Part shown: positions 15,287 through 42,929 of the stretch, in pieces
How the letters are laid out: each line of letters opens with the position of its first letter
Position numbering within the stretch: the stretch's first letter is position 1
Assembly: GCA_049852185.1 (NCBI GenBank)
Contig: CP187540.1
Source of the DNA: Methanocaldococcus sp. 28A
GTDB taxonomy: Archaea > AGJL01 > Methanococci > Methanococcales > Methanocaldococcaceae
Direction: 5' to 3' (one strand)
DNA length: 64,000 nt
Program-made: the position numbers and the translations under genes
The notes under the pieces: generated by a model
The model's input: only the letters and a program-made list of their open reading frames with translations
Database searches by the model: none
What the model was told of the DNA's origin: nothing

Positions 15287-15435
15287 TTAATCAATTTTAA
15301 TTACTTCTAATATTTCTCTGAAACTTTAATAAAGTTTCATCAAAGCTAACACCTCCGAGCATAAGCGAGGAGTTGTAAATATCCACCTTTTTATTATCCC
15401 TGTTAGTCAATTTTAATTACTTCTAATATTCCTCT
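15287..15435 (-). repeat. Hairpin cassette (15320-15402) flanked by a 33-nt direct duplication
   Basis: 15287-15319 and 15403-15435 differ at 2 positions. The insert has gaaactttaataaagtttc and an acacctcc...gaggagttgt module. Confidence 0.85.
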
Positions 15436-15725
15436 AATTGCCAACAAATCTAATTTACTTTGTGGTTTTAAAATACCTTCTTCAATATTTACAAACAAAA
15501 TGTTTTTCTTAACACTCCAGACAATCTCATCAGTTATTTTTTTATTAAAATATTTCATCATTGTTTTTAAAGTTTTCAAATAACTTAATAACTCTTCTAA
15601 ATAAATCTTTATCTTCATCCTCTAAAGAATATATTAAGTCCATTAACTGCCTTTTTCTAACTCTGAGAGATTTTTCGCAGAATTCTTTAATATCTTCTCC
15701 TAAGATTTTTTCTTGAACTACTTCA
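15403..15725 (-). pseudogene. C-terminal fragment of an archaeal ATPase paralogue
   Basis: VKKNILFVNIEEGILKPQSKLDLLAIR matches the C-terminus of the 11661-12740 paralogue. The 5' part is missing. Confidence 0.75.
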
Positions 15726-15771
15726 TCCTATTAATTATATAAACTACTTAATTATATAAACTACGAAAGTC

Positions 15772-16128
15772 CTATTTTAAGCTAATTAAATCAGGTCTTG
15801 GCTTTTTAAATTTATATTCTTCCCTACAAATATTACAAAGCTCTCTAACTCCAATATTTATTACATCATCACTTCCTGGCAACACTCTAACAAATATCCA
15901 ATCAGCATTTATATCATAATTTTTAGCTAACTCCTCCAATTTATTTAAAATCTTCTCTTTAAATATTTCAACATCATCAATAAAAAGCCCCCTAACAGTT
16001 ATCATTATCCCTACACAAGAGCATCTTGAAGCAAAAACATCCATTTCAGAGATAAAAATTTCTCTACCTAAAAGTTTTATAAAAAACTTCTCAATCTCTT
16101 CCCTATCCTTCAAAATTTTATTTTTCAA
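15772..16128 (-). CDS. Small Cys-containing hypothetical protein (DUF5402-like)
   Basis: SRCSCVG and ELCNIC motifs. Overlaps the U32 gene stop. Its TAG lies within a MITE-B-like end (cgaaagtccta). Confidence 0.7.
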   Translation of the reverse strand: MKNKILKDREEIEKFFIKLLGREIFISEMDVFASRCSCVGIMITVRGLFIDDVEIFKEKILNKLEELAKNYDINADWIFVRVLPGSDDVINIGVRELCNICREEYKFKKPRPDLISLK

Positions 16129-17123
16129 TTTTTCACCTTTAAGGCTTTCTCTGCCAAATCTTTACAGAAATTGCATTTACTACATAATTTATTACATGAT
16201 TTCCAATATTCTATAGCTCCATCCAAAGCCCTATTATCTAAATAATAAAAATGCTCTAACTCTCTTGGGCAATCCAATAATTCCATCAAATTTCCTTCCC
16301 ATTTTTCATTTAAATAAGCATTTAAGGCTCTCTTTATCCATCCAATTGGATGACTTCTTCCAGAAATTTTAAATATATCAACTAAACCTTTATAGTATTT
16401 TAAATCTTCTGGTCTTATGAAAGGGCTTTTTATTATTAGCTCTTTTTTCTTAATTCTTAAATTTATGCATTTGTTATAATAATAATCATCCAACGCAGGA
16501 ACATTTTGAGCATTTGCATGGGAAAAGAAATTGAAATGCTGAATTCTCATAGGGCATTTGTATAAGCAGGATTCATTAACTAAAATTTTTAACTTACAGC
16601 TAACATTCTCTTTAATCTCTTGTATTATATCAAAGTGCCTATTTATTGAGCTGTCTAAGGTTATTGCATAAACCTCTTTTTCATCCCAAAATAGGGCTTT
16701 ATCTAAACTATCAACTAAGGCAATACATGAGACATTAACATCCAATCCATTACTTTTTGCCAAATCAATTAAATAAGGGTCTGATAAGGCAACACTATCA
16801 ACATCTATGTTTTTTAATTGGCTAAATATCCAATTTATATAACTGATACCTTTTAGTGTTAAGTGTATTCCACCAATGCAGGAAGCGTTTATAACTACCT
16901 CAAATCTGATGTTATTTTTCTTTGCATAATTAACTTGCTTAGCTAAATCTTCGAAATTTGGTTTGTATAAAGTTGCTCTTCCAGTTCCTATAAACTCTGG
17001 AAATCCCATATAAACTTCAAAACTTTCCTTTCTTAGCTTTTTATTTATTCTTCTATGTTTATTTATCTCATCTACAATAATTTTTAATGATTCAAAATTT
17101 CCTGGATGTGGAATAGAGAACAA
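16125..17123 (-). CDS. Peptidase U32-family protein (probable Fe-S hydroxylase)
   Basis: LVNESCLYKCP, FKISGR and a C-terminal Cys cluster. TTG start with RBS ggtga. Confidence 0.85.
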   Translation of the reverse strand: MFSIPHPGNFESLKIIVDEINKHRRINKKLRKESFEVYMGFPEFIGTGRATLYKPNFEDLAKQVNYAKKNNIRFEVVINASCIGGIHLTLKGISYINWIFSQLKNIDVDSVALSDPYLIDLAKSNGLDVNVSCIALVDSLDKALFWDEKEVYAITLDSSINRHFDIIQEIKENVSCKLKILVNESCLYKCPMRIQHFNFFSHANAQNVPALDDYYYNKCINLRIKKKELIIKSPFIRPEDLKYYKGLVDIFKISGRSHPIGWIKRALNAYLNEKWEGNLMELLDCPRELEHFYYLDNRALDGAIEYWKSCNKLCSKCNFCKDLAEKALKVKN

Positions 17124-17224
17124 TGGTCATCACCATATAGATTATTTTGTAATTAAAAAAAGAGAAAAATTACTCCTTTTATATCATTTAAATCTCCATT
17201 TATAAATTTACATCTTCTTTGATA

Positions 17225-17257
17225 TTTATATGTGCAAAATATTTTTGGATACCTCCA
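17225..17257 (-). mobile_element. Solo IS481-like terminal repeat relic
   Basis: Reverse complement ggtatccaaaaatattttgcacatataaata resembles the end at 25093. Confidence 0.55.
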
Positions 17258-17691
17258 GCTATAAAATCCTTTTTATAGCGTTCCAAACTAAATAACTCTG
17301 TGGCTTTAAAAAGCTTTAAATTGAATTTAAGTATAAAATATTTCTTTTAATTAAAAATTCTCTAATTTTTTATGGATTTTAGTGTCTTCAATTATGTAAT
17401 TTTAAATAAACTTATAATAATTAACAACTTCTTTATAAAGTTCTTTATTTTCCTCTTTGACATTTTCTAAAAAGTATACATAGTCATGTAAAAATTACAG
17501 CGCAATATTAAACGAAATATGTGCTGGCTGTAAAGTCATACTTTAAAATACTATTCGAGTTATAAAAACTATTTCTATATTATATAGAGAATAATAAATA
17601 TAAAAATAATTTATTCGCTCAAGAATCGAACTTAGGGTTCTTAAATCTCGATTATAAAAAAATTATATACCTTATGACCAAACTCTAAAAG

Positions 17692-19854
17692 TTAAGAAGA
17701 TGTAAAAATGTAATATTGAGCATTTTGTGAGGAATATATTTTATTGGAGTGTAAAAGCATATTGAATATTTCTGGAGTTTTAATTGGCAATTCTTCTTTC
17801 TGCCCTCTACCAATAGGGATTACCATAAAATTCAGTTTTTTATTTTCAATATTCCACGATCCTAAGAACAAATAATAACCATATGATGTCTTTTTAGGTT
17901 GTACTATGTTGTTTTCTGAATTTATCAGGAGCATGTGATTGTCTACAGATTGTCCGAGTAATCCTAAAAATAAGGGAACCCTATCGAAATCAGCATAGAT
18001 TGAATTATTATTTTTGTATTCTTTTATCCACAATCCAGCCATAATCTCAGAATTAGTCCATCTCGCACATGATACTTCTTTTCCAAGATATCCAGGATAT
18101 GGTGGATCATTTGCAACTTTATATATTAAACCTGAAGTAAATACCAAATAAATTACCAAAAATACTGTGAAAAACTTTAAAATTACTTGGTTGTTTAGTT
18201 GTATTTTGGTAACTTTTTGTAAAAATCTAAAAACGGCGATATAACCAATGACCTCAAACGGGGCTAAAAAGAATAAAGTAAGCTGATAAAGTCTTGAAGC
18301 ATTTAGAGCATTTGCAAAGTATGGAACTACAATACCTGCTACATCATATGCAAACCAAACAAAAGTTAATGCAACATATTCTTTATTAATTTTTGTTTTT
18401 TTATAATTAAAGAATAACCATAAAATACCTATACCAATAAACCCTTGAGTAATTAAATAGATATACTTACCTATGTTATGTAATAGTGAGAGATGTCTAA
18501 TAATGAAGTAAAACCCTTGAGCTTTAGGTGTAAATACATCATAAATTGAGTTTAAGATAATATTTCCAGTTTGAACAATAGTATCAAACACAGAAGAGCG
18601 TGAAACTAAAATGTGATATAATAGGGTTATTATAATAAATATAATAATACATCTTCCATTAAGCAATAGTTCTTTTTTTTCTTCAGGATATAGAATTGAG
18701 TAAACAATCCATCCTATGATTAGTGATATTATAAATAGCCAGACGGTTCCATAATGGGATATAACTAAACCAAATCCAAACATTATCAGAAAAATTTTTT
18801 TTGTATTGTAATTTAAATTTCTTGTAAATATTAAAAGTATCAAAAGCATTAAATAAAGTTCAGCAATTTGTTGTCTTGCTACTGCTAACATCTCAATAAA
18901 GAATGTACTTAGAGAAATGAAAAAAAATGTTGCTAAAAAGGACTCTTTTTTTCTTAAGAAGTAGCAGTATGTTCTGTATAATCCAACTGGAACTAATGAA
19001 AATATGAGAGGATATATTATTTTGAAAACCATAATTTGACTAAGATTAAGAAAAATTGAGTATATAGGATTTAAAAGTACTACACTTAAAACAGAATTAT
19101 AATTATTTAATACTACATTTGGATCCCAATATCCATGTGTTAAAACCAAATGAGCTAAGTAGTATTCACCATTAATATCATATCCCCAAATGTAATTCCA
19201 TGATGTCCCAAAATCAGATACATAAAGTAAAGATATTGTTAAAATCCAAATAGTCCATGTTAGATATCTTGTTTTTTTACTATATATTACATATATTGGA
19301 ATAATAATAATTAACAAGAATGTTAGCATAATTAATGAAGAATCTCCAGTAATATTGAAAAAGTATGCACTACCTATTCCTAATATTGGTAGAATTAATA
19401 AACCTAAGACATACGGATTTAATATATCTTTAAATAGAATTAGATTCATATTGTTTTTATTATTAATATATGTCTTGTCCTTAAAGTATGCTAATATTAG
19501 AAATAAAATAAATGTAATGTTAAATGTAATTAAAAGTGGTATAAGAGATATTGGACGTTTAATACCAATCATTGGATAAAAAATGTCCATAAATAAACCT
19601 ATTATCATAATATACAATAAACTTAAACCTGTAGCGAAGAGTAATGCTTCAATCCTATCTATTTTATTAATTCTCAGGATTCTTAAAATGGTATATCCTG
19701 GAATAAAAGTCAAAAATAAGAATCCAGTTACCTGTCTTATTATTGGAATGTTCAATCCTATCTCATCAAGTATTATCAACCCATCAAACACTAAAAGTAA
19801 AGAAAGTGAAATTATAACAAATTTTTTAAATCCCCATTCATTTAGACTCAACAT
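17692..19854 (-). CDS. DUF2206-family polytopic membrane protein
   Basis: 720 aa with many TM segments, GYDINGEYY and ARQQIAEL motifs, in a glycosylation cluster. Confidence 0.82.
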   Translation of the reverse strand: MLSLNEWGFKKFVIISLSLLLVFDGLIILDEIGLNIPIIRQVTGFLFLTFIPGYTILRILRINKIDRIEALLFATGLSLLYIMIIGLFMDIFYPMIGIKRPISLIPLLITFNITFILFLILAYFKDKTYINNKNNMNLILFKDILNPYVLGLLILPILGIGSAYFFNITGDSSLIMLTFLLIIIIPIYVIYSKKTRYLTWTIWILTISLLYVSDFGTSWNYIWGYDINGEYYLAHLVLTHGYWDPNVVLNNYNSVLSVVLLNPIYSIFLNLSQIMVFKIIYPLIFSLVPVGLYRTYCYFLRKKESFLATFFFISLSTFFIEMLAVARQQIAELYLMLLILLIFTRNLNYNTKKIFLIMFGFGLVISHYGTVWLFIISLIIGWIVYSILYPEEKKELLLNGRCIIIFIIITLLYHILVSRSSVFDTIVQTGNIILNSIYDVFTPKAQGFYFIIRHLSLLHNIGKYIYLITQGFIGIGILWLFFNYKKTKINKEYVALTFVWFAYDVAGIVVPYFANALNASRLYQLTLFFLAPFEVIGYIAVFRFLQKVTKIQLNNQVILKFFTVFLVIYLVFTSGLIYKVANDPPYPGYLGKEVSCARWTNSEIMAGLWIKEYKNNNSIYADFDRVPLFLGLLGQSVDNHMLLINSENNIVQPKKTSYGYYLFLGSWNIENKKLNFMVIPIGRGQKEELPIKTPEIFNMLLHSNKIYSSQNAQYYIFTSS

Positions 19855-19966
19855 TAAAACCCCTCAACTATTAATATTTTTGAGATATCTTTATATAGAT
19901 TTATGATAAGTAATGATAAATAAACAGATATTAATAGTTTTGTAATAATTATGTTCTGGTGTCTGT

Positions 19967-21037
19967 ATGTATCCACGGGTTTCCATAATAATTTTGAATT
20001 GGAATGGTTGGAAAGATACTATAGAATGTTTAGAATCGCTCTATAAAATAACTTATCCCAATTATGATGTTATTATTGTGGATAATGGATCCAAAGATGA
20101 CTCTATTCAAAAGATAAAAGAGTATGCTGAGGGGAATATCGAGGTTAATTCAAAGTTTTTCAGGTATAACCCAAACAATAAGCCTATTAAGGTTTTCGAG
20201 ATAAGCGAAGATGACGCAAAACAAGGAAAGTTCAATAAACCGGTCTATGAAAAGTTTGATCCTAACAGGCGGATGATTTTGATCAAAAACAATGATAACT
20301 ATGGATATGCTGGTGGAAATAACGTTGGGATAAAATTTGCTTTAAGTGTTTTGGATCCTGATTATGTTTTGCTTTTAAATAATGATACAGTAGTTGATTC
20401 AAACTTTTTAACGGAGCTTGTTAAGGTTGCAGAGAGTGATAAGAATATTGGTATTGTGGGGCCAAAAATTTATTATTATGATTATAAGGGGAGGAGTGAT
20501 GTTATTCAGTATTGTGGTGTAACATTTATTCCAAAGCTATTGCATAAAAAAGTAGTAGGGTATAAGGAAACTCACTACAATCATATTGAACCGGTTTTAA
20601 CCGATGAGGTTCATGGAGCATGTATGCTAATTAAAAAAGACATCTTTTGGAAAGTCGGTTTTCTAGATAACAACTTTTTTGCATATTGGGAGGAAACAGA
20701 CTTTTGTTATAAATCAAGAAGAATGGGGTATAAACTGAAGGTTGTACCAATAGCAGAAATATGGCACAAAACTGGCTCAAATAATCCATCAGAAAAACGA
20801 ATAAGCACTTTTGCAACATATTTATTCGCTAGGAATGCTATTTATTTCATTCGAAATAATTTGAATGGTTTTGATAAATTTATCAGTCTATGTTTTATAT
20901 TTACGATAAATTTTGCTTTTTTAGAGGCTGTTTATTTCATATATTACAAAAAACCCAAAGTAGCTGTTAGTTATTGCTTGGGCTTAATAAATGGCATTTG
21001 GGGGGAGAAAGGAAAACCCAATTTAATGTTTAAGTAA
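19967..21037 (+). CDS. Glycosyltransferase family 2
   Basis: VSIIILNWNG, VDNGSKD, LLLNNDT and YWEETD motifs. Confidence 0.92.
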   Translation: MYPRVSIIILNWNGWKDTIECLESLYKITYPNYDVIIVDNGSKDDSIQKIKEYAEGNIEVNSKFFRYNPNNKPIKVFEISEDDAKQGKFNKPVYEKFDPNRRMILIKNNDNYGYAGGNNVGIKFALSVLDPDYVLLLNNDTVVDSNFLTELVKVAESDKNIGIVGPKIYYYDYKGRSDVIQYCGVTFIPKLLHKKVVGYKETHYNHIEPVLTDEVHGACMLIKKDIFWKVGFLDNNFFAYWEETDFCYKSRRMGYKLKVVPIAEIWHKTGSNNPSEKRISTFATYLFARNAIYFIRNNLNGFDKFISLCFIFTINFAFLEAVYFIYYKKPKVAVSYCLGLINGIWGEKGKPNLMFK

Positions 21038-22156
21038 AGATTGATAAACTTTCTCATAATCCCTTGCAACTTCCTCCCATGTCCTTATTTTCTTGCTAAA
21101 CGGCCCTACCTTAACATCACTATTCACAATTTTTAATATTAACTCAGCAACTTCTTTTGGATTAGGTGGATAATTAACACCAAAACATCCTGGTTCATTT
21201 AAAAACTCTTTTAGAGCTGTTCTTTTTGTAACTATTACAGGAGTTCCTAGAGCTAAGGCTTCAGCAACGGTTATTCCATAAGCTTCAGACTCAGAGAGCA
21301 ACAAAAATACATCCGCATTTTTTATTTCATTTATAAGTTCCTCTCTAGGTAAAAAAGATTTCCACATAATTTTATCATTTATTCCAAATTTTTTTGCTAA
21401 TTTTAATAACTTTTTCTTTTCTGGACCATTTCCAATTATCGTAAGAACTACATTTTCTACTCCAAAATCATAAGATAAACTATATAAACTTTCTAATATA
21501 TACTCTACTTTTTTTCTTTTTATTAAATATCCAGAATAAAGAAGATTGATTTTATCTTGATGTTTTATAGTCTTTTTCGTATTGATTATATCCACACCAT
21601 GAGGTATTATCGATATTTTATCTAAACTAATGTCAAATATCTGCATAAGCGTTTTAGCTTCAAATTCAGATGGTGAAATTATATAATCTACTAGTTTAAA
21701 TATTTTACTTCCAATAAAAAAATTGTATATTCCCCAAAAATATCTTCCGACAAATGTACTTCTGGCTACATCTAAATGAGGAGAATATACTAATGGAGTC
21801 TTAGGAAAATGTTTCTTAATAATGTAAATCATTTCTGGTGAAAACAATGTATGGTATCCATGAACATGAACAATATCTGGATTAAACTTTTTTATACTTT
21901 TATATATTACGTCAATATTCTTGATACTAATCCCGTAGAGTATTTTTCTATATTTATATCCTCTAATTAATATAAAACCCTCTTTTTTTTCTTTAATCAT
22001 CTGTAAATTATCATCCCATGATGGATTAAAAACTATAACATCATGACCCCACTTAGAAAGCCATCTAGCTGTTTCAAAAACGACTTTGTTTATTCCTCCA
22101 GGTGCTGTAGTTTCCATATAGTTTATTAATAGAATTTTCATTATCATCTCCTCCAA
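21023..22156 (-). CDS. Glycosyltransferase family 4
   Basis: PDIVHVH and EAYGITVAEALALGTPVI motifs. Confidence 0.92.
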   Translation of the reverse strand: MEEMIMKILLINYMETTAPGGINKVVFETARWLSKWGHDVIVFNPSWDDNLQMIKEKKEGFILIRGYKYRKILYGISIKNIDVIYKSIKKFNPDIVHVHGYHTLFSPEMIYIIKKHFPKTPLVYSPHLDVARSTFVGRYFWGIYNFFIGSKIFKLVDYIISPSEFEAKTLMQIFDISLDKISIIPHGVDIINTKKTIKHQDKINLLYSGYLIKRKKVEYILESLYSLSYDFGVENVVLTIIGNGPEKKKLLKLAKKFGINDKIMWKSFLPREELINEIKNADVFLLLSESEAYGITVAEALALGTPVIVTKRTALKEFLNEPGCFGVNYPPNPKEVAELILKIVNSDVKVGPFSKKIRTWEEVARDYEKVYQSLLKH

Positions 22157-23331
22157 ACAAAAAATTTAAACACTCTCTCATACTCCTTCGCAACTTTCTC
22201 CCAGTTGTACTGCCTTCTTATCCTCATAATTTGAGTCTTCTTTATAAGCTTTAAATCAAACATCCCTCTCTCAAGCATTTTCATTTTGTTAGCTAAATCA
22301 TCAGCATCTTTAAAGTATATTCCCCCTTCCTGCAGAACCTCCTTGTTAAACGGCACACCATAAGCTAATATTGGTCTCTTAAACAGCATCTGCTCAAGTA
22401 GAGAGGGATTTGTCCCTCCAACTTCATAAGCGTGAATATAAGCAAAACAGTACTTCCTCAAAACTCCGAGAACTTCTCTGTCATATATTGGATCTAGGAA
22501 AATTATATTGTCATTATTACTTTTTAATTTAAGCAAATGTTGTGTATAGGGGTCCCTTTTGTTGAAGTTTCCAACTATAACAAGCTTATTTATAGAATCT
22601 GCTTTTTTAAATCCTTCAATTTCCAAATGAATATTGTTCTCAGCAACTATACGAGCAACTGTTAGGTAATACCTCCTCGGTTTTAATCCAAAGCTATTTA
22701 AAATTTCTATCTCGTCCTCTTTTGATAACTTCGATGGAAGAAGTTCTCTTGCACCATAAGCAATGTAAATTACTTTTTTTGGTTTATGTTTCCTTTCTAA
22801 ATGCTTTTTAATACCCAAGGAGTCAGCGACCACAATATCAGGTAACTTACAAGACAAGTATTCCATCAAATACATGTAGATCATTGTAGCTAAATAAATT
22901 GGAAATAAATAAAATGGCACAAAATAGCTTCTCTTTATCAGTCTTCTCCATTCCACACCATCTGGGTTTATCATAATTTTTTTCTTTGCAAGTTTTGCAA
23001 GAATTGCTGCTACAGAGCTATCAGGTCCAAGAAAGTAAAATAACTCTATGCTTTTTTCATGTTTTGCGAGAATATATGAAGTATTGAGAAGGTCATTAAT
23101 TGTTGGAATACTTGTACTTTTACTTTCAATTGCTGGAGAATGAACTCTGATAATTTCAGTATAGTTATCTTCATAAAATTTATTATCCTCATGCATAACA
23201 TAAAATTGAAATTTATCTTTTAATCTCATAGTGAGTTCTTCTACAAAAGTTTCAGTACCTCCATAGTTAGATGGAATTCCTCTTAATCCAATAATTGCAA
23301 TTTTAGGTTTATTTTTAGGTTTATTCAACAT
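22144..23331 (-). CDS. Glycosyltransferase family 4 (DUF1972-type)
   Basis: GLRGIPSNYGGTETF, NPDGVEW and EVGGTNPSLLE motifs. Confidence 0.9.
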   Translation of the reverse strand: MLNKPKNKPKIAIIGLRGIPSNYGGTETFVEELTMRLKDKFQFYVMHEDNKFYEDNYTEIIRVHSPAIESKSTSIPTINDLLNTSYILAKHEKSIELFYFLGPDSSVAAILAKLAKKKIMINPDGVEWRRLIKRSYFVPFYLFPIYLATMIYMYLMEYLSCKLPDIVVADSLGIKKHLERKHKPKKVIYIAYGARELLPSKLSKEDEIEILNSFGLKPRRYYLTVARIVAENNIHLEIEGFKKADSINKLVIVGNFNKRDPYTQHLLKLKSNNDNIIFLDPIYDREVLGVLRKYCFAYIHAYEVGGTNPSLLEQMLFKRPILAYGVPFNKEVLQEGGIYFKDADDLANKMKMLERGMFDLKLIKKTQIMRIRRQYNWEKVAKEYERVFKFFVWRR

Positions 23332-23339
23332 CTCACCTT

Positions 23340-24044
23340 TTAATCAAACCTCTTTTTAACGAGATACCATCCAATCATTAATCCAGTTTTTATAGCACCT
23401 AATGGATTACCCCCACCTAATTTAGGTTTATTTGGTCTTTTTCTGTAATTTATTACAATTTCACCAATATTAAAACCTTTTTTTACAATTTCAGTATAAA
23501 AGTTAGCTTCAAGGTCAAAACCATCGGCATCTATTTTAATAGACTCTAAAACATACTTTCTAAACCCCCACATTCCAGTACATAAATCACTAATTTTCAT
23601 TCCATAAAGAATTGTAGCTAATAATGTCAAACCGAAATTTCCTAATTTATTAACTTTTGACATTGCTCCATTTTCAATTTTTCCTTTTAATCTAGATCCA
23701 ATAACAACATCGTATTTTTCCAATGCTTTAACAATGTCATAGATATATTCAGGAGGATAAGTATAATCTGAATCAAGCATAACTAAATAGTCATAATTGA
23801 AATCTATTAACTCTAATGCTCTTTTTACACCTCTTGCTTTACCTATTGGCACATTATATACTATTGCCCCCTTTTTCTTAGCAATTTCAGCTGTTTTATC
23901 AGTACTATGTCCATTAGCTACAACAACTTTTACATTATACCCCTCATTCTCTAATTTCTTAAATGGTATTTCGTCAATAACCTTTCCTATAGTTTCTTCC
24001 TCATTAAGTGCAGGTAATAAAACTACAACTGTTTTATTTTTCAT
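23340..24044 (-). CDS. GT2, dolichol-phosphate glycosyltransferase-like
   Basis: LPALNEEETIGKVI, MLDSDYTYP and VIGSR motifs. Confidence 0.88.
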   Translation of the reverse strand: MKNKTVVVLLPALNEEETIGKVIDEIPFKKLENEGYNVKVVVANGHSTDKTAEIAKKKGAIVYNVPIGKARGVKRALELIDFNYDYLVMLDSDYTYPPEYIYDIVKALEKYDVVIGSRLKGKIENGAMSKVNKLGNFGLTLLATILYGMKISDLCTGMWGFRKYVLESIKIDADGFDLEANFYTEIVKKGFNIGEIVINYRKRPNKPKLGGGNPLGAIKTGLMIGWYLVKKRFD

Positions 24045-24065
24045 AGTATCACACTATTTAAATTT

Positions 24066-25055: not shown

Positions 25056-25092
25056 AATATTAACCTCTCTTCTCTTTTATATATTTATATAG

Positions 25093-25928: not shown

Positions 25929-25972
25929 GCTATAATAAAAAGCTTAAATATATTTACAATTACTGTGAAATT

Positions 25973-26452: not shown

Positions 26453-26531
26453 ATAAGGACATTAAAAAATAGACGATTTAAATATTGTTATTATTGATTA
26501 AATCATTAATTTAAATTTAATAGGTGGAATA

Positions 26532-27329: not shown

Positions 27330-27399
27330 ATGAGAAATTTTTATGATAGTGGAATTGGTGGTAGTTTCCTTAAATAGAACCTATAAAACAAAAGATCAT

Positions 27400-32047: not shown

Positions 32048-32122
32048 GCCAGTTTATTTTATTATATTATTTTAATTTTTATTTTTAATTAATTGTTTTA
32101 TTTAATTTCTGAATAGTATTAA

Positions 32123-32572: not shown

Positions 32573-32575
32573 TAA

Positions 32576-32691
32576 TATAGTTTTGTGCAAAATAAACTAA
32601 ACTTTATAAGGAAAATTTGAATGTTTTCCAAAAAGAAGACATTCATTAATACCTTAATTATTAATTATAAATACTTTTACACAAAACTATA
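32576..32691. mobile_element. MITE-A copy, diverged
   Basis: tatagttttgtgcaaaa...ttttacacaaaactata. Confidence 0.8.
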
Positions 32692-32706
32692 ATTTAAAGG
32701 GAGAAT

Positions 32707-33093: not shown

Positions 33094-33182
33094 TATCCAA
33101 TAACAAAGTATGAATAAATCTTGATTTTTAAATTTTAGGTTTAGTTTATAATCTATTTTAAAAACTTTTTTGGTGATAATTT

Positions 33183-34196: not shown

Positions 34197-35294
34197 CGAT
34201 AAACCAATTTCTTCACACAAAGAGATTATGGCATTACCAACGGCTATTCGATTTAGTTTTCTTCTAAGTTCGTACCAACTGATATTTTTATCGATTCTAA
34301 TTTTCTCTAAGAGGTAGAAGGCTCTCATAGAAAGGGAGATATGACCTAAAATTGGAAATTTTTTTCTAACGAAGAAATTGCCTGTATTACAGCACTGTTT
34401 AACACCCCTATGGAATTCCTCGATTCTCCAAGAGGCGTTTTTGACCTCTTGGAATTCTTCGAAACTCATAAATAGGTTATTAGTTATATAATATTTTGCC
34501 TTTCCGTTTTTGGAAAGGCAGAAGAGTCTAACATAGCCAACTTTTCGTAGATAAACGATTAATCCATTCTTAGGAATTTCCTTAAGGTCTTCGATTGATA
34601 CCCACTTTCCGTTTTTGGAGAGTTTTACCTTTCTATTCCTTTTAATTCTGCAGAGGTAGAATAAACCTAAACTATCGATAAGTTTTAAGTTATCTTTACT
34701 TGAATACCAACTATCGAAACAGATATATCTAATATTTAATCCTTTATCTACTAAAGACTTTATTATCTCCCTACATAAATTATTTTTCGTCTTTCCATCT
34801 CTTGGTCTGTCATATACTCTAAAATCGATTGGAATAATATGTTTTCCATTTGTAATTATGCAATCAACGATATGTATGCCTTTAATTACTCGTTTATGTA
34901 GATTACTCCAACAATAATAAGCAAATTCAGTCGATTTAGAGTAAATTTTATCTATAACAAAGTCATCTATAACGACAATATTATAATCAGGAGTGATTAA
35001 ATCTTTAACGAAATTAAAAAGCTTTTCTTGTGGGAAGATTCCTTCTTCCCAAAGTATTCTATTTATTGTATCGTGAGATATGTCGATTCCGAAAATACGC
35101 AACGTTTTCGATAACTCTACACACGAATTAATCTCTGAAAGTAATATAAAAAGCATATAAACGATAGTCCTCGACATTTTTAGCATATTTTCCCCAAAAT
35201 AAACTTTTTGTTTCGAAAAATTATAATATCTAATAAAAATAGATTATCATGAAATGTTATAATAAAATATTTAAATATGCTTGCAAAAGTCCTA
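34160..35294 (-). mobile_element. IS701-like insertion sequence, copy 1 (1135 bp)
   Basis: TIRs tag(a/g)acttt(c/t)gca...atttaaata. Flanks ttaaa and taata do not form a TSD. Confidence 0.9.
34188..35186 (-). CDS. IS701-like DDE transposase
   Basis: VIDDFVIDK, FDSWY and WRIEEFHRGVKQ motifs. Confidence 0.9.
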   Translation of the reverse strand: MLKMSRTIVYMLFILLSEINSCVELSKTLRIFGIDISHDTINRILWEEGIFPQEKLFNFVKDLITPDYNIVVIDDFVIDKIYSKSTEFAYYCWSNLHKRVIKGIHIVDCIITNGKHIIPIDFRVYDRPRDGKTKNNLCREIIKSLVDKGLNIRYICFDSWYSSKDNLKLIDSLGLFYLCRIKRNRKVKLSKNGKWVSIEDLKEIPKNGLIVYLRKVGYVRLFCLSKNGKAKYYITNNLFMSFEEFQEVKNASWRIEEFHRGVKQCCNTGNFFVRKKFPILGHISLSMRAFYLLEKIRIDKNISWYELRRKLNRIAVGNAIISLCEEIGLSLI

Positions 35295-35325
35295 TAATAA
35301 TAAGTAATATATAACTATCCTATAA

Positions 35326-35438
35326 TATAGTTGTGTGCAAAACTATCTTAATTAAAAAAGGTATTAAAGAATGCCTTCTAAAAGGAAGGCATCCAAATTA
35401 TCCTTACAAAAGTTTATTTCATTTTGCACACAACTATA
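35326..35438. mobile_element. MITE-A copy
   Basis: tatagttgtgtgcaaaa...ttttgcacacaactata. Confidence 0.9.
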
Positions 35439-35444
35439 ATAGAA

Positions 35445-36497
35445 TTATTGCTTATACCACTCATTAAATTTATTTTCTATAAATTCTCTTATTTTTATAG
35501 GTTCTAAACCATTAGCTATGCTATAAACTGCTACTCCTCCAGCTCCAACACCCTCTTTTACTGAACCTTTGCAGTAATTTTTTAACCCTTCAATTTTCGC
35601 ATCTTCAAAATAAAACTTAGATGCTAATATTGGAATTTCTCCAATTTGCTCAACTATCCCTTTTAAATCTCCTTTTTTATCATTTAAAACAAATTCAGTA
35701 GTACCTATGGCTATTAAGTTTTTATCTAAAATTTCTCGATTGATTTCTTTTATAATAGAGAGAACTGCACTCATCTGAGTGCCTCCAGCTAATATAACGG
35801 GCTTATTTTTTTCAGCAAAACTTATAGCTAAACCAGCAACAACAGGCATCATTTTATCTCCAACCGCATTTAAAACATCAAAGACAGATGAGTTTTCATT
35901 TATATCTGCTTTCTTTAAACCCTCTCTAACAATCTTTATTTTTAATTCATGAGGGTTATTTACAGAGCCAGAGCTAACCTTTCCCTCGGCATCATATCCT
36001 AAACCTAATAAAACTCCTAAGGCTGTTGTAGTTCCTCCAGGAACACTTTCTCCAACTATTAGCATATCAGCATCTAAGTTTTTTCCTAAAAGATAACCTT
36101 TTTTAAATAATTCTTTTGAGTTATTCATAGCTTTACCTTCTTCTATTTTTCCTGTAGGTTTTTCATCTACTTCTATAAAAGGAATCTTTGGTTTAATAAA
36201 AGCTCCAGCATCTATATGTAAGTTTTTTATATTTTTTAGCTCAACACATGCCCTTGTAATAGTTGCGGGGCTTGGAGAACCTGTAGCATCTATAGGTGGA
36301 GTTTTTAAAGTTAATGACTTTCCATAAAAAACAAGCTCAACATCTGCAGATGGTGTGTATTTAATAACCTCTCTATGAACTCCAGATATTGGTATGTATA
36401 AGGTTGTTTCTATTGATGAAATTACACAAGTAAATAATGGATTTTTTCCTTTAATTTTATCTAAAAATCCATTTTCATTTATTGCTATTATATGCAT
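35445..36497 (-). CDS. cobT: Archaeal nicotinate-nucleotide:dimethylbenzimidazole phosphoribosyltransferase
   Basis: GESVPGGTTTA, LAGGTQM and VKEGVGAGG motifs. Confidence 0.88.
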   Translation of the reverse strand: MHIIAINENGFLDKIKGKNPLFTCVISSIETTLYIPISGVHREVIKYTPSADVELVFYGKSLTLKTPPIDATGSPSPATITRACVELKNIKNLHIDAGAFIKPKIPFIEVDEKPTGKIEEGKAMNNSKELFKKGYLLGKNLDADMLIVGESVPGGTTTALGVLLGLGYDAEGKVSSGSVNNPHELKIKIVREGLKKADINENSSVFDVLNAVGDKMMPVVAGLAISFAEKNKPVILAGGTQMSAVLSIIKEINREILDKNLIAIGTTEFVLNDKKGDLKGIVEQIGEIPILASKFYFEDAKIEGLKNYCKGSVKEGVGAGGVAVYSIANGLEPIKIREFIENKFNEWYKQ

Positions 36498-36509
36498 TTT
36501 TATCCCTCA

Positions 36510-37343
36510 TTATATATTTAATCCTCGTTTTCTCAGCTCTTCATAAACTTCATAAGGTACTTTAGGTTTTTCCAAAATTTTTTTAGCCTTTTCTTTTGAT
36601 AACAAACCTAATCTAACAAGTGTTGCTACTCTATCAATCTCAAAGCTAAAACCATATTTATTATAAAATCTCTCCAATGCTACACCGAGCACTAAACAAT
36701 TTGTTGTATATCCTCCCAAATCTGGTTTTTTCCAAGGTAAATCTTCCAACATTTTATATTTCTCCTCTTCTTTAAATTTGTAAGGAGCTAATAATCTTAT
36801 CATCTTTATGCCTTCTTTCATTTCCCTTATTGCTGAATGTCCGAAAGGTAATTCATGCCCTGTAATTATATACTTCAACCTTAACAATTTAGCAACTCTC
36901 CAAACCTCTCTTAATATTAATTTTGAGCATCTTCTACAAGGGCTTTCTCCTCTTTTTATAGCATCTTCAAATAATTCAGTATAATCTCTATTTAATATCA
37001 TTAAATCAACATTATAATGTTTAGTTACATTTAAAGCATTTTCTATAGCTTCTTTAGCCATATACCTATTATCAACCATAACACATAATGGATTTAGTTT
37101 AAATTTCTTTTTTAATAGTTTTAATGCTAAAACACTATCTTTTCCACCAGAAAATGCTAAAACACAATGATATTTCCCAACTTCTTTTTTTAAATTAAAT
37201 AGAATTTCTTCAACCTCTTCTCTCATCTTATCGAAATTTGGTGGATACTTTAGCATTGTTAAACAATCTACACATATTGGTTTGCCTTCATGATTAACTA
37301 TCTTTTTTGTTTTTGATGTATGAACACAGATTGAACATTCCAT
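36510..37343 (-). CDS. PP-loop ATPase family protein
   Basis: AFSGGKDS, N-terminal CxxC pairs and PCRRC. Confidence 0.8.
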   Translation of the reverse strand: MECSICVHTSKTKKIVNHEGKPICVDCLTMLKYPPNFDKMREEVEEILFNLKKEVGKYHCVLAFSGGKDSVLALKLLKKKFKLNPLCVMVDNRYMAKEAIENALNVTKHYNVDLMILNRDYTELFEDAIKRGESPCRRCSKLILREVWRVAKLLRLKYIITGHELPFGHSAIREMKEGIKMIRLLAPYKFKEEEKYKMLEDLPWKKPDLGGYTTNCLVLGVALERFYNKYGFSFEIDRVATLVRLGLLSKEKAKKILEKPKVPYEVYEELRKRGLNI

Positions 37344-37420
37344 AATTTCACAGATAACATTTTATATGTGGATGAAAATTTATCAAAATTATAATATTAA
37401 ATTAATTTAAGGGGAGATGA

Positions 37421-37954
37421 ATGTTTTATAAGTTATTGTTTGCATCGCTTTGGTATATATTGCCAGCTTATGTTGCTAATGCTTCAGCATGTATTTTTGG
37501 TGGAGGAACTCCAGTAGATTTAGGAAAAAATTTTATTGATGGAAGAAGATTGATAGGTAATGGTGTAACATATAAAGGCAGTGTTTTTGGAATCCTATGT
37601 GGAACCTTAGTTGGAGTAATACAAGGAATTTTAGTAAATTTTAATATTTTTAACAGCTTAGATTTTTATGGTTCTGTTATTGACCATGCAATATTAGCTT
37701 TCTTTTTATCTACTGGGGCTGTTGTTGGTGATGCAGTTGGTAGTTTTATAAAAAGAAGATTAAATATTGAAAGAGGAAAACCTGCTCCATTATTAGACCA
37801 GCTTGATTTTGTAATTGGAGCTTTAGCATTTGGTTATATTGTAGCTCCAATACCTCAAGAGATGGCAATTATAATCTGTCTATTTACCGTGTTTATACAT
37901 TTACTTGGAAATATAATCGCTTATAAATTGGGAATTAAAGATGTTTGGTGGTAG
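37421..37954 (+). CDS. carS: CDP-archaeol synthase
   Basis: [18 protein letters not shown] and LDQLDF motifs. Confidence 0.93.
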
Positions 37955-37956
37955 AG

Positions 37957-38439
37957 ATGATAACTATAGATATTGAGTTAAAAGATAAACCTGGTGAATT
38001 ATTGAGAGTCTTAACACCAATCTCAAAACATGGGGCTAATGTAATAAGTGTTATACATTCAAGAGAAGAAAAGAGAGGAGGAAAAGTTCCTGTAAGGATT
38101 GTTATTGATGTTGATGATAAAGAAAAATTAAAAAATATTTTAGAGGATTTAGAAAAGGAAGGGGCTATAATTAAAAAAATTGATGGGAAGGATAAAAAGG
38201 TTTATTTGGATGTTGTTGTTATAGGGCATGTTGTTGACACTAATATAAGAGATACAATAGATAGAATAAATGAAATAGGTCTTGTTGAAGATTTAGATTT
38301 AATTATGCCACATCCAGATAAAGAATCGTCAGCAATGATGAGAATTATTATTGATAAAGATAAAATAGAAGAACTATTTTATCTATTTGAAAAATTAGAA
38401 ATAGAAAAAGGTCTGTTATTTATAAAATCCATGTTTTAA
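37957..38439 (+). CDS. ACT-domain protein (homoserine dehydrogenase regulatory partner)
   Basis: [13 protein letters not shown] motif, directly upstream of hom. Start placed at ATG 37957. Confidence 0.82.
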
Positions 38440-38471
38440 AACAATATTTTGCAGATATTAATATTGGTGAG

Positions 38472-39485
38472 ATGATGGACATTATCATAATTGGATTTGG
38501 AGCTATAGGGAAGGGAGTTGCTAAGGTTTTGCATGAAAAGAGAGAATATTTAAAGAAAAACTATGAAGAGTTTAAGGTTGTTGCTATAACAGATAGCTCT
38601 GGAGCTGCAATAGATGAAAATGGGCTAAATTTACAAAAGGCAATAGAAGTTAAAGAGAAGACAGGAAAAATTAAAAATTATCCAGAAAAAGGAAAAGAAA
38701 TAAGCTCCATAGATGTTATAAGAAATGTTGATGCAGATGTTGTTGTTGAAGTAACACCATCAAACTTAGAGACAGGAGAACCTGCTAAAACCCACATCTT
38801 AGAAAGCTTTAAAAATAAAAAACATGTTGTAACTGCTAATAAAGGGCCTTTAGCTTTATGTTATAAAGAGCTGATTGAAGAAGCAAAAAAATATAATGTT
38901 ATTTTTAGACACGAGGCATCAGTTGGAGGAGCCATGCCAATAATAAACTTAGCTAAGGAAACATTAGCTGGAAATGAAATTTTATCAATAAGAGGAATTT
39001 TAAATGGAACAACCAACTATATATTAACAAAGATGGAAAAAGAGGGTTTAGATTTTGAAACTGCATTAAAAGAAGCTAAGGAATTAGGGATAGCTGAAAC
39101 AGACCCAACTCAAGATATTGAAGGTTTAGACACTGCAGCAAAGATTGTTATTTTAGCCAATTCAATTATAGGAATGGATAAAACAATTAAAGATGTAAAG
39201 GTTAAAGGAATTAAAAGGATAACTCCAGAAGCTCTATTTTTAGCTAATAAAAGAGGATATACAATAAAATTAATTGGGCAAATTAAAGATAAACACTTAA
39301 TCGTTGAGCCAATGCTTGTTCCAATAGACAATCCATTAAATGTCAAAGGAACTTTAAATGTCGCAATGTTTGAAACTGATTTGGCAAAAGAGGTTGTGGT
39401 TGTTGGAAGGGGAGCTGGGCCTATAGAGACAGCATCAGCTATTTTAAGTGATTTAATCCATATTTATCAAGCTACAAAAAGATAA
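38472..39485 (+). CDS. hom: Homoserine dehydrogenase
   Basis: [25 protein letters not shown] and GRGAG motifs. Confidence 0.96.
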
Positions 39486-39508
39486 CTAATTTTGTTAATT
39501 ATTGATTT

Positions 39509-40369
39509 TTATTTTTTATTACCAGTATCCTGTGCTGTTGGATAAGGCATAAACTCAACAGTTCCTCTCTGCCTTATTGGTTGCTTATACAACTCCATTA
39601 GAATATAAACTTCGTCTGGAACATTTGTATCTACATTTAAACCAAGTTTTTTAGCTTCTTCAACAGTTATTGGATAGTCATGAGTCCATCTACCTTCTGT
39701 TAATGTCTTAGATAGCTCTTTAGCTTTTTCTTCCCCATATCTATCCTTTAATAAATTATATACAAAATTTTGTACTTGATTTATTGCTTTTTTAGCAATG
39801 TCTGCTAATATTAAAGTCTGGTCATCTACTTTTTCAACACCTTTCTGTTCAACAGCCCTAACAATACTTGGAGCAGGATACTGCCCAAGTTGTGGGTCTA
39901 CAGGTCCTAAGACGGCATTTTCATCCATAATTATTTTATCTGCGGCTAAAGCTATTAAAGTTCCTCCACTCATTGCGTAATGAGGAACTATAACTCTCGT
40001 TTCTGCTGGATGAGCCTTTAACGCTTTAGCTATTTGAGTAGCTGCTAAAACTAAACCTCCTGGTGTGTGTATAATCAAATCTATTGGTTTATCTTTAGGA
40101 GCAGACCTTATAGCTCTCAAAATCTCTTCACTATCTTCAATGGTTATAAATTTATAAACTGGAATCCCAAATAAACCAATACTTTCTTGCCTGTGTATCA
40201 ATGTTATCACTGTTGAATTCCTCTTATTTGAAAGTTCTTTAAGGATTTTTAATCTTGCAAGCTGTAATTGTTTATATTGTATTTGTGGAGCCATAATCAG
40301 ATAAAAGAATAGAAGCCACCAAATTAATGAGCCAATAAAACCACTAAACATATCCATTATTATCCCCAT
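39509..40369 (-). CDS. SDH-family ClpP-fold serine protease-like membrane protein
   Basis: HTPGG, AMSGGTLIALAAD, GPVDPQ and WTHDYPI motifs. True start is probably MDMFSG. Confidence 0.88.
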   Translation of the reverse strand: MGIIMDMFSGFIGSLIWWLLFFYLIMAPQIQYKQLQLARLKILKELSNKRNSTVITLIHRQESIGLFGIPVYKFITIEDSEEILRAIRSAPKDKPIDLIIHTPGGLVLAATQIAKALKAHPAETRVIVPHYAMSGGTLIALAADKIIMDENAVLGPVDPQLGQYPAPSIVRAVEQKGVEKVDDQTLILADIAKKAINQVQNFVYNLLKDRYGEEKAKELSKTLTEGRWTHDYPITVEEAKKLGLNVDTNVPDEVYILMELYKQPIRQRGTVEFMPYPTAQDTGNKK

Positions 40370-40371
40370 TA

Positions 40372-40530
40372 ATTATTTTCTTTATCCATTTATCTAACAT
40401 CTCTAAAAAATTACCTTCGCATAGGACTTCGCCCTATTGCTATACCCAGGATGCATTGCTTCCCTTAGGAAGCAATGCCTCTTAAATTATTATTTTCTTT
40501 ATCCATTTATCTAACATCTCTAAAAAATTA
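40372..40530 (-). repeat. Hairpin cassette (about 40414-40488) flanked by a perfect 42-nt direct duplication
   Basis: 40372-40413 is identical to 40489-40530. The insert has hairpins gcattgcttcc-ctta-ggaagcaatgc and atagg...cctat. Confidence 0.9.
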
Positions 40531-41930
40531 TCTTCGTTATCATTTATATTATTGTCTATTTCAATCTCTGGGATTTCTATTTCTAAATCAACATTAAAGG
40601 CATTTCTGCAGAAGTTTTCATAATCAATTTCTACCTCTGGAATTAATCCTCTACTCTCATTAACCACTTTTTTTATTCCATAAACTCTTATATTATATTT
40701 TTCAGCCAAATTTTTTAATTTCCCAAATAAATTCCAATCATACACTTTGTTTAAAATTATTCCCTCAACTTTAATCCCTAAATCTTTAAGTAAGCTGTAA
40801 TATGCCATTGCTTCTACAAAAGCCCCTTCTATTCCACTTATATTACAAGGACTTATTATATAAACTGGAAATCCAAGCCTTTTGGCAATTTGGTATGAGG
40901 AGATATTTTTTAATGCAGCTGTAAAAGCCCCCATAACTCCCTCAACAATAATATAATTATAATCTGATTTTTTTATATAATCTAAAAATTCAAAAACCTC
41001 CACCCATCCTCTCTCTCCAATCTTTATACTATTGTATTTTGTCATCCTCTCTCTCAATAAATATAAAGCTGGCACTATATCTCTAACATCTCCCCCAATT
41101 TTAGCAACAAAAACCCTTCCCTCTAATTTTGCAGATATAGCAGTGGTTAAAAATGTCTTTCCACTATTTGACGATGTAGCCAATAAAATAATTCCTCTCT
41201 TTTTATTTTTATCTTTCTTAGTATTATTATTTTTAATACTTTCTGGATTTAGCCTATATTTTAAAGCTCTCTTCCTTAGCTCATCCTTTATAATCTTATT
41301 TTTTTCAAAAATTTTCTCTTTTTCATCCTCTGTAACTCCCATAAACTTTAAAAAATTATCTCTAATAAATTCATTATCTAAGAAGTTATGAACCATTGTC
41401 CCAAACACTTTGCCTTTAAAAGCTCCAGAGATTATTTCTTGTTCTTTACTTAATTTATAATTTAGTTTTCTTACTTTTGAAATCGTAAAAATTTTTGTTT
41501 CTTTATCAACTATCTTAATGTCTCCATAGGTGTGACAGTGAAACCCCTCTCCTTTTCCTTCCCCGAATATTGATTTTTTCATCTCAAATTCAACTCTATC
41601 CGTACAAACCAATGGATAAAATTCAACATCTAACAAACCTAAACCCTCCCTAACAATTGGAATTACACTTTTCCTTCCAATGTCTATTTTTTTTGATAAG
41701 ATTTGGAATCCACTACATATTCCTATTATATAACCATCAAAGTTAATTATTTCTTTTTTTATCTCTTCATTTAATGATTTACTTTCAACTAAACTACCTC
41801 CTGGTATTATTAAAGTATCTAAATCTTTAATTTCTTTGTAGTTTTTTTCGTCTATAATTTTTGTTGTAAGATTTCCAAAATCTTCAAATAATGGTAGGGA
41901 ACCTTTTATATCTAAAATGCCAATTTCCAT
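40482..41930 (-). CDS. CobB/CobQ-like glutamine amidotransferase plus P-loop protein
   Basis: [21 protein letters not shown] and VEGVMG motifs. Confidence 0.82.
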
Positions 41931-41975
41931 AAATTACCCCCCTATAGTCTATAAAAAATACTAATTGTGATATAA

Positions 41976-42605
41976 ATGGATTTAAAAGATATAAAGTTGA
42001 GGAAGATTATAGAAATATTAAGTTTAATTTTTACATTTGAGATAGTTATTTCTTTTATATTATCAACTTATAACCCTTCCTATCAAGATTTGTTAATAAG
42101 ATTAGATTATATTTCGATAATATTCTTTACCTTTGAATTTATATACAACTTCTATTATGCTAAAGATAAAGCAAAATTTTTTAAAGATGTTTATAATATT
42201 GTTGATGCTATAGTCATATTTGCATTCATACTATATTCTTTACAGATATTCTATTCAAAAGCGTTTTTAGGCCTAAGAGTAATAAATATTTTAAGAATTT
42301 TGGTTCTACTTAGAATAATTAAGTTGAGGAGGTTAAAAGAAAATCAGGAATTATTTAACTTTTTATCACTATTAATAATTTGCTTTATTTCTTCATGTTT
42401 AATATGGATTGCTGAATCAGGTGTAAATCCTGCAATAAACAATTTTTTTGATGCTTTTTATTTTACAACAATATCTATAACAACAGTAGGTTATGGAGAT
42501 ATAACTCCAAAAACAGCAGCTGGGAAGCTGATAATAATATTCTCTGTCTTATTCTTTATTTCTGGATTAATTACATCATTGCAAAAGGCTTTAAAGGGAG
42601 AGTAA
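41976..42605 (+). CDS. mvp: Voltage-gated potassium channel (MVP)
   Basis: S4 segment LRVINILRILVLLRIIKLRR and the TVGYGD filter. Confidence 0.92.
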   Translation: MDLKDIKLRKIIEILSLIFTFEIVISFILSTYNPSYQDLLIRLDYISIIFFTFEFIYNFYYAKDKAKFFKDVYNIVDAIVIFAFILYSLQIFYSKAFLGLRVINILRILVLLRIIKLRRLKENQELFNFLSLLIICFISSCLIWIAESGVNPAINNFFDAFYFTTISITTVGYGDITPKTAAGKLIIIFSVLFFISGLITSLQKALKGE

Positions 42606-42929
42606 CCATAGAGGGGGCGTAGCCCCCTCTATTGGGATACTCCCCCATAAGCTTGTATTAGTTTAATAATAAGAGGCATTACCGAGCGAAGCGAGGTAAT
42701 GCATCCCGGGTATTCCGAACCATAGGGCTAACGCCTTATTGATATGAACCTTTTAGAAAAAGGTTCATCAAAAAATTTGGGGTATACCAATAGGGGCATA
42801 GCCCCTATGGTTCGGGATACCCAAAATTTACACCTCTGCCAAAGGCAGAGGTGTTAGGGAGTATAGCAATAGAGGGTTTCCCTCTATGCGGTGTTGAGCC
42901 CTATGGTTATAAAAGGCTTTAAAGGGAGA
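42583..42929 (+). repeat. 309-bp multi-hairpin cassette (42602-42910) flanked by a 19-nt direct duplication
   Basis: aaaaggctttaaagggaga at 42583-42601 and 42911-42929, enclosing about 7 GC-rich hairpins. Insert ends are taaccatag / ctatggtta. Confidence 0.9.

Follow-up and report, generated by a model that had tools for sequence, protein, structure and literature searches.

Small hairpin cassettes with long, variable target duplications at gene junctions of a Methanocaldococcus genome

How can a GC-rich hairpin cassette lodge between two neighbouring genes, stand between two copies of the upstream gene's last codons, and leave both neighbours intact? The question is raised by three loci in a stretch of 64,000 nucleotides (the window) from contig CP187540.1 of Methanocaldococcus sp. 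28A (assembly GCA_049852185.1), which in our numbering is C1:736001-800000 of genome G000, a genome of 1.556 Mb with 29.7% G+C. A preliminary description of this DNA had read the same order at all three, namely gene end, hairpin cassette, second copy of the gene end and next gene, and had proposed an insertion system. This architecture is real at each locus, and because relatives without the cassette carry the stretch concerned only once at all three orthologous sites, the duplications are tied to the insertions. None of the refuting tests set out in the preliminary description overturned its observation.

At the first locus, on the minus strand, the true 3' end and stop codon (15403-15405) of a 71-aa open reading frame (ORF; 15403-15618) lie in the upstream copy of the duplication (15389-15435). 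The cassette (15320-15388) consists of a bipartite C-D hairpin unit (15321-15379) and a few extra bases; an nhmmer model of the CD unit matches it with an E value of 1e-17, and its fold has a z-score of -4.2. The downstream copy (15276-15319) repeats the end of the 71-aa ORF, its final codons with the stop, at a displaced position, and has become the leader of a 539-aa ORF starting at 15269. As read, the repeat pairs 15287-15319 with 15403-15435 over 33 nt with 2 mismatches, the length given earlier; judged by the 44-47-nt overlap of the flank alignments in G001, G008 and G010, where the site is empty and single-copy, it extends to about 15276-15319 and 15389-15435. At the second locus, also on the minus strand, the upstream copy (40489-40536) is the true 3' end of a 482-aa ORF (40482-41930), the cassette (40420-40488; z -5.0) is a B-A unit with its B end adjoining the upstream gene's stop codon, and the downstream copy (40372-40419) holds the displaced last 16 codons of the ORF directly upstream of a 286-aa ORF starting at 40369. 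The repeat measures 48 nt with 1 mismatch rather than the 42 nt first reported, and the target stretch about 48-52 nt; in G008, G001, G012 and G005 the site is single-copy, and the ribosome-binding site (RBS) and start of the next gene come straight after the upstream stop. At the third locus, on the plus strand, a 209-aa channel-like ORF (41976-42605) has its true 3' end, stop codon included, in the upstream copy (42579-42605), and the downstream copy (42907-42933) holds the RBS of a 331-aa ORF starting at 42934. The 305-nt cassette between them (42606-42910) comprises about eight modules in the order A, spacer, B-A, D, A, C-A and partial A, with no ORF of at least 40 aa within it. Here the repeat (42583-42605 and 42911-42933) spans 23 nt with 1 mismatch, instead of 19, within a target stretch of about 23-27 nt, and the site is empty and single-copy in G010, G001, G007, G008 and G004, with an overlap of 27 nt. 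The sister genome G011, about 95% identical to G000 and compared through its contig C1, has the same junction and the same duplication at this locus, filled by a 110-nt A-C-A cassette.

The same signature recurs across the genome. A transitive BLAST census seeded with the three cassettes gave 44 regions in G000, merged into 40 cassettes, and for each of them the 120 nt on either side were compared by local alignment at a score cut-off of at least 32, with 2000 random pseudo-insert sites in the genome as control. Flanking direct repeats of 21-86 nt were found at 16 of the 40 cassettes, compared with 1.2% of the controls; the three loci score 56, 91 and 41, and the 99th percentile of the random sites is 34. 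The replicate in G011 gave 12 of 27 cassettes against 1.6% of controls. Two families of miniature inverted-repeat transposable elements in G000, which bear terminal inverted repeats (TIRs) and are here called MITE1 and MITE2, served as internal controls, and none of their copies (0 of 42 and 0 of 12) reaches the score, bearing out the earlier contention that the cassettes are unlike MITEs. The window holds two further members of the family, one combining an A-like module with a D module (4425-4475; C1:740448-740475) and the other an A module (8914-8956; C1:744914-744956), neither with an assigned strand; neither has a long flanking repeat (scores 18 and 16).

To compare insertions directly, clean presence/absence events of 20-400 nt between G000 and G011 were taken from chained megablast high-scoring segment pairs; the number of bases by which the left and right flank alignments overlap in the empty allele served as a proxy for duplication length. 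The 13 hairpin events have overlaps of -6 to 49 nt; followed junction by junction, eleven have duplications of 36, 41, 24, 49, 32, 12, 39, 27, 6, 12 and 42 nt and two have none or about 8 nt, so that 8 of the 13 duplicate at least 24 nt. In comparison, the 19 MITE1 events overlap by at most 5 nt (one by 18), the 19 MITE2 events by at most 8 nt, and the 52 other indels by at most 14 nt (one by 51). The duplication is thus not a trait of the genome or of the method, as indels of the MITEs and of other kinds lack the long overlap; a long, variable duplication is a property of the hairpin family. Two more sites polymorphic between G000 and G011 show overlaps of 58 and 76 nt, and at eight sites beyond the three loci the empty alleles of G011 and of outgroups have neither duplication nor cassette. 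In all, the duplications have no fixed length; they range from about 6 to 86 nt, with 25-55 nt as the common range, and some junctions contain filler bases: 6 nt at C1:1494779, 17 nt at C1:184681, 33 nt at C1:870027 and AAGGG in G015 and G001. About one third of the cassettes differ between the two genomes, and the family is active enough for experimental study.

What is being inserted is a small and rather uniform object. Its basic unit is bipartite, with one outer hairpin of B, C or further type, a short linker and one A or D hairpin, and measures 67 nt as A-B, 63 nt as B-D and 60 nt as C-D (range 60-70 nt). Unit ends and unit length are constant, and there are no TIRs: the ends, CCATAGG... 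and ...GCCTCTTAAT, are not inverted copies of each other. The B hairpin reads GAGGCATTGCC...GGCAATGCATCC, the C hairpin ACACCTCC...GGAGGTGT, the A hairpin AATAGGG...CCCTATGG and the D hairpin GATGAAACTTT...AAAGTTTC; the outer hairpins share a tail of the form ...ATTAAGAGGC / AATTTACACC, and relatives have a third outer type as well. The four modules named in the preliminary description are real, and all fold as hairpins: with DNA parameters, the z-scores lie between -3.0 and -6.8, and of 200 shuffled sequences at most one (0-1) folds equally well. Among 21 unique regular-expression matches to the B-module pattern, at least five are compensated stem variants (GCATTGCC/GGCAATGC, GCACTACC/GGTAGTGC, GCATCACC/GGTGATGC, GCATTATC/GATAATGC and GCACTGCC/GGCAGTGC), and wholly different stems also occur between conserved flanks. 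The larger cassettes are clusters, nested or remodelled versions of these units. The A-B unit was surveyed, together with the enzyme families discussed below, over 17 genomes of the family, of which the G007 and G008 assemblies are incomplete and fragmented; it is present in 14 at E <= 1e-4 and was not found in G009, G013 and G003, and G011, G010, G015, G026, G006 and G012 carry 13-23 unit matches each. A further module (ACGTCCATTATGTTGCCCCTAAAAGGGGCAATTAATGTCCA-like) joins B-D units in several cassettes (C1:946586-946732, 1367892 and 1508141-1508310), and a 'G-type' hairpin (AAGTGGGGCTGAA..GCCCCGCT) stands in for B or C in G001 and G010.

The loops are often GCGAAGC, GCGTAAGC or GCGTAGC, which correspond to the 'mini-hairpin DNA' motif GCGN(N)AGC. 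This motif is 47-fold enriched in cassettes, which hold 29 of its 149 occurrences in 0.4% of the genome. A 2026 review (PMC13037366) describes mini-hairpin DNA as often found close to priming sites and as having an unusual resistance to heat and nucleases.

The positions of the cassettes follow the gene map closely. By our crude gene calls (1522 ORFs of at least 70 aa, 85% of the genome coding), 27 of 29 well-scoring units sit at co-directional gene junctions, compared with 68% of all junctions (p = 0.0014), and none of the 29 at divergent ones. The modules had been said to keep one orientation relative to the upstream gene; they do so at the three loci, whereas genome-wide the ratio is only 18:9 and not significant (p = 0.12). 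Of the 16 repeat-flanked cassettes, 15 overlap a gene boundary and one overlaps no called boundary. Duplication of the upstream gene's 3' end, first taken as the general rule, applies to about 12 of the 16; a gene start with its RBS is duplicated at three cassettes (C1:254108, 650400 and 1508141), and the 43 nt duplicated at C1:1494779 contain one gene's stop and, in our reading, an AT-rich leader, probably a promoter or 5' leader, that extends to the next gene's RBS. The usual pattern is that the copy joined to the gene is conserved and the other copy decays.

Several junctions have been occupied in more than one lineage. The second locus is also filled in G010, with boundaries within 1-2 nt and a different B variant, and both repeat copies carry G010-type bases in G010 and G000-type bases in G000. 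The C1:1494779 site is empty in G011, G010, G006 and G026; in G015 and G001 it holds other unit types with the A junction about 6 nt off and the extra AAGGG. At one occupied site the A junction is common to G015 and G001, but the unit is C-A in the former and a different outer hairpin plus A in the latter. The gene start at C1:254108, empty in G011, G015, G006 and G026, bears a different unit in G001 and G010, with a duplication of about 30-35 nt as opposed to about 80 nt in G000. This recurrence may mean that insertion returns again and again to a restricted number of junctions, or that old insertions have undergone copy-correction, module replacement and frequent precise loss.

How, then, are the duplications made? 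Our tentatively favoured account, to which we give slightly less than even weight, is that the cassettes are copies, or nested and remodelled clusters, of tiny non-autonomous mobile hairpins. The element would form a discrete single strand with a hairpin cap, and this strand would be captured or copied at two far-apart nicks on opposite strands, or alternatively at a gap at a replication fork; the B or C end would join at a stop- or RBS-like sequence and the other end 6-86 nt away, and fill-in by host replication and repair enzymes would duplicate the intervening stretch. Only those insertions would survive whose duplication restores the interrupted gene end, start or leader, and the cassettes may look as if built to preserve both neighbours because a genome that is 85% coding keeps only such restoring insertions. 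The continuous range of duplication lengths, the occasional fillers and the lack of TIRs point to joining of a polymerase or repair type rather than by a fixed transpososome, the constant unit ends and length to a discrete intermediate, and the DNA-specific loop motif hints that this intermediate is a single DNA strand. A more specific version, in which host replication or repair enzymes insert heat- and nuclease-resistant, mini-hairpin-capped strands (60-70 nt) without transposase, reverse transcriptase or HUH enzyme, at spaced nicks preferentially in stop- or RBS-like sequence, with junctions hit repeatedly across species, strikes us as conceivable but doubtful. If it were true, the elements would systematically supply new short ORFs and duplicates of regulatory sequence, and host-driven capture of hairpins at staggered nicks would be a new insertion route, perhaps tied to life near 85 °C with an AT-rich, polyploid genome.

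A number of points weigh against the capture of a hairpin-capped strand. The staggered nicks, the single-stranded intermediate, the order in which its ends join, the filling-in and the part played by selection are inferred rather than observed, as is the work of host enzymes. Long repeats are lacking at 24 of the 40 G000 cassettes, which may have decayed or been inserted otherwise. The repeats could also recombine and remove a cassette precisely, leaving it absent from one sister genome, so that not every polymorphic site need be a recent gain, and copy-correction could keep repeats perfect. The near-identical boundaries of seemingly independent events, at the second locus in G010 and at C1:1494779 in G015 and G001, may equally fit a sequence-specific enzyme. 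By eye, a possible TTAAG or AAGAGG-like target can be made out next to the B end at about five junctions (the second locus, 648745, 38985, 650401 and 1494779), although fillers and decay obscure the exact positions of the junctions. Finally, the loop motif lies on one strand in 15 of 16 occurrences within units, a bias that is not independent evidence because it is largely inherited with the B module.

The competitor that survives best is a dedicated transposase or integrase, encoded by an insertion sequence or by a domesticated host gene, that recognizes both hairpin ends and cuts with a widely variable stagger, akin to the enzymes of IS1634 or YPAL. Such an enzyme would account for the constant element ends, the bipartite end structure and the reuse of the same sites in different lineages with boundaries within a few bases, and it has precedents: the contention that DDE elements give only short, fixed target duplications does not hold universally, as IS1634 is listed with long variable repeats and YPAL with duplications of 3-26 bp (PMC2229807). 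TnpB elements also co-occur loosely with the hairpins, being present in 11 of the 17 genomes, including all eight element-rich near-complete ones, and absent from G009 and G013; this pattern is confounded by relatedness and assembly quality, and TnpB is missing from the element-rich but fragmented G007 and G008. Against a dedicated enzyme stand the absence of TIRs, the filler bases at junctions, the lack of any observed long element with these ends at its borders, and the finding of Y1 transposases in only 3 of the 17 genomes. A phyletic filter left 172 of the 1522 G000 ORFs as candidates: each has a tblastn match covering at least 60% in G011, whereas G013, compared over 1.2 of its 1.33 Mb (90%), gave no such match; six of the 172 are TnpB-like. 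On balance we judge a dedicated transposase unlikely. The one IS605-type element of G000 (C1:829300-831450) combines a Y1 transposase with a TnpB gene and has end hairpins CTCCGCCCTAAAGGGAGGAG / CACCGCCCTAAAGGGCGGTG; it was considered as a parent and rejected, its CTCCGCCCTAAAGGGAGGAG-type end hairpins being unlike modules A-D.

Template switching, by microhomology-mediated break-induced replication or fork stalling and template switching (MMBIR/FoSTeS), would have a stalled strand jump by microhomology to one or more hairpin modules, copy them and return upstream of its exit point, leaving an insert and a duplication. It fits the variable duplication lengths, the fillers, the mosaic cassettes of shuffled modules, the replacement of an outer hairpin in situ between G015 and G001, the remodelling of the third cassette between G000 and G011 and the possible microhomology at B-end junctions; moreover, six pure tandem duplications of 15-173 nt separate G000 and G011. 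Yet genomic donors should often bring their flanks along, whereas the ends of the inserts are constantly the ends of the element, and inserts with long duplications are nearly all hairpin modules, only 1 of the 52 other indels having a long overlap. Template switching is rather improbable, and the capture of a discrete hairpin strand remains our preferred explanation. Two of the sister-genome differences, at C1:517602 and C1:645962, are perfect tandem duplications (135 and 173 nt) in coding-looking sequence that are absent in G011 and have no hairpin between their copies.

Transposition by an HUH enzyme (IS200/IS605 TnpA or a RAYT) of a PATE- or REPIN-like element, or off-target integration by Cas1-Cas2, is very unlikely, even though the layout of subterminal hairpins is like that of REP doublets and of the ends of IS200/IS605, a repeat of roughly 30 nt is duplicated when CRISPR spacers integrate, and the cassette at C1:184681 lies between CRISPR-repeat-like direct repeats. 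To our knowledge, HUH elements make no target duplication. A search for a co-distributed HUH or RAYT enzyme had been suggested; Y1_Tnp (PF01797) was found in only 3 of the 17 genomes, one copy being broken, and was absent from the element-carrying G011, G010, G015, G026, G006 and G012, even though G011 has cassettes lacking in G000 (in the named control genome, M. jannaschii, there was likewise no match). Cas1 occurs in 15 of the 17 genomes, wherever elements are abundant and also in G009 and G013, which are free of the A-B unit, and is therefore non-discriminating; a duplication of 6-86 nt, moreover, is not the ruler-defined length expected of Cas1 (the CRISPR repeats of the window measure 30 nt).

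Retroposition in the manner of short interspersed elements (SINEs), with a two-hairpin RNA reverse-transcribed at a nick in a target-primed reaction, would likewise yield variable duplications, asymmetric ends and fillers, and the stable hairpins could define the bounds of a processed RNA. It is scarcely credible here, because the RNA-templated insertion put forward earlier finds no enzyme: RVT_1 (PF00078) has no match in any of the 17 genomes, in a search whose control gave matches in 3 of 14 named genomes; there is no A-rich tail, and the loops match a stability motif specific to DNA. The signature cannot be assigned to reverse-transcriptase, HUH or fixed-ruler Cas1 chemistry. That the duplications were not made by insertion at all, tandem duplication preceding colonization by hairpins or slippage following it, would draw on the existence of pure tandem duplications and on possible homogenization of the repeats by copy-correction, and is a most implausible idea, largely refuted by the empty sites at the three loci and eight others, by the lack of any duplication-only site seen at these junctions, and by the excess of flanking repeats over the controls.

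The cassettes are very probably the MJRE repeats of 2005, to which the preliminary description pointed with its remark on palindromic repeats of M. jannaschii. Suyama, Lathe and Bork (FEBS Lett) reportedly described MJRE1-3 as palindromic repeats of Methanocaldococcus jannaschii that fall into several groups, mostly extragenic with some in genes. Like them, the hairpins here are small GC-rich palindromic repeats of an AT-rich hyperthermophilic methanogen, occurring in 14 of 17 Methanocaldococcus-type genomes. The available passages of citing papers mention only in-frame coding copies of MJRE or cite the 2005 paper without comment. In the literature searched, which did not cover the 2005 text itself, we found no description of long variable duplications, bipartite units, recurrent sites and compensated stems for archaeal hairpin repeats, and this junction signature does not appear for archaea in the accessible portions of PMC2229807, PMC3733652, PMC3184786, PMC2996958 and PMC12306157.

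Among better-known systems, the closest in form are the bacterial REP, BIME and REPIN elements, which share short GC-rich hairpins, doublet units, mosaic clusters, a position after genes between co-directional or convergent ones and ends able to supply stop codons (PMC3733652); they differ in that no GTAG/CGTC tag and no RAYT are seen here, and the word 'duplication' does not occur in the accessible text of PMC3733652 and PMC12306157. YPAL (RU-2) of Yersinia is likewise small, non-coding and mobile, contains inverted repeats and makes a target duplication of variable size (PMC2229807); compared by description rather than by sequence, it is longer (168 bp), bacterial and narrower in duplication range. 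IS1634, an IS4-related element of Mycoplasma mycoides, is listed with long, variable-length direct repeats at its insertion sites, but it is a DDE insertion sequence that is kilobases long, autonomous and equipped with its own transposase gene, unlike units of 60-70 nt without TIRs or a linked gene. SINEs and long interspersed elements (LINEs), through target-primed reverse transcription, share variable duplications, asymmetric ends and fillers at one junction, and differ in their reverse transcriptase, their tail and their non-prokaryotic host. The MITEs of the same cells resemble the hairpins in being small, non-coding and polymorphic between the sister genomes, and differ in their TIRs and duplications of only 2-8 nt. 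MITE1 (about 110 nt, TIR TAGTTGTGTGCAAAA, a central GAATGCCTTCC...GGAAGGCATTC hairpin and a TA-type duplication of 2-3 nt) has 42 full copies by regular expression, two of them in the window (32578-32688 and 59339-59453; C1:768578-768688 and 795339-795453). MITE2 (about 90 nt, TIR AGGACTTTCGCAG, duplications up to 8 nt) is found for example at C1:40806-40899, 83283-83376 and 1149227-1149315, with a minus-strand fragment at 15720-15770 of the window. At the G011 orthologue of window positions 15270-15770 the 71-aa ORF, the first cassette and this fragment are all missing and an unrelated 28-nt stretch stands instead; in G015 the junction of the second locus holds a GAATGCCTTC-type hairpin resembling the core of MITE1.

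Small prokaryotic repeats (REP, MITE, RPE, MJRE) are usually assigned to known transposase families or left unexplained. Here, one such family has a quantifiable signature of long variable duplications, fillers and recurrent sites that is missing from the MITEs in the same cells. New in our analysis are the sister-genome indel census with its MITE controls, the absence of reverse transcriptases and the rarity of HUH enzymes over 17 genomes, the recurrent sites, the bipartite unit and the mini-hairpin loop motif. In practice, each duplication can leave a decoy gene end, a short ORF upstream of a gene or an additional leader copy, all of which annotation pipelines and operon models will misread.

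Some minor observations concern neighbouring elements. GC-rich, apparently structured inserts of 210-285 nt (C1:65927-66139, 1177623-1177907, 1197682-1197965 and one inside 36105-36443), none of which G011 has at the corresponding site, form a family of their own and might be what is left of TnpB elements, in a form resembling guide RNAs; one of them lies within an A-hairpin loop, in a composite with a 49-nt target duplication. The direct repeat flanking the A-A-B cassette at C1:184681 (C1:184656-184830) is a 21-nt GTTTCCATCCTTGTTTTAATGGAC-like motif that also occurs, reversed, beside the A module at 8914 of the window (about 8870-8900) and resembles a decayed CRISPR-type repeat. A search of the window against Rfam found only CRISPR-DR13 repeats above threshold and no family at gathering score on any cassette, with sub-threshold, chance-level matches alone at the third locus, and no tRNA was found in the window. 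The CRISPR array itself lies on the minus strand at 60959-61473 of the window, with at least eight repeats of 30 nt, and one of the eight TnpB-like matches of G000 is an ORF at 450-1442.

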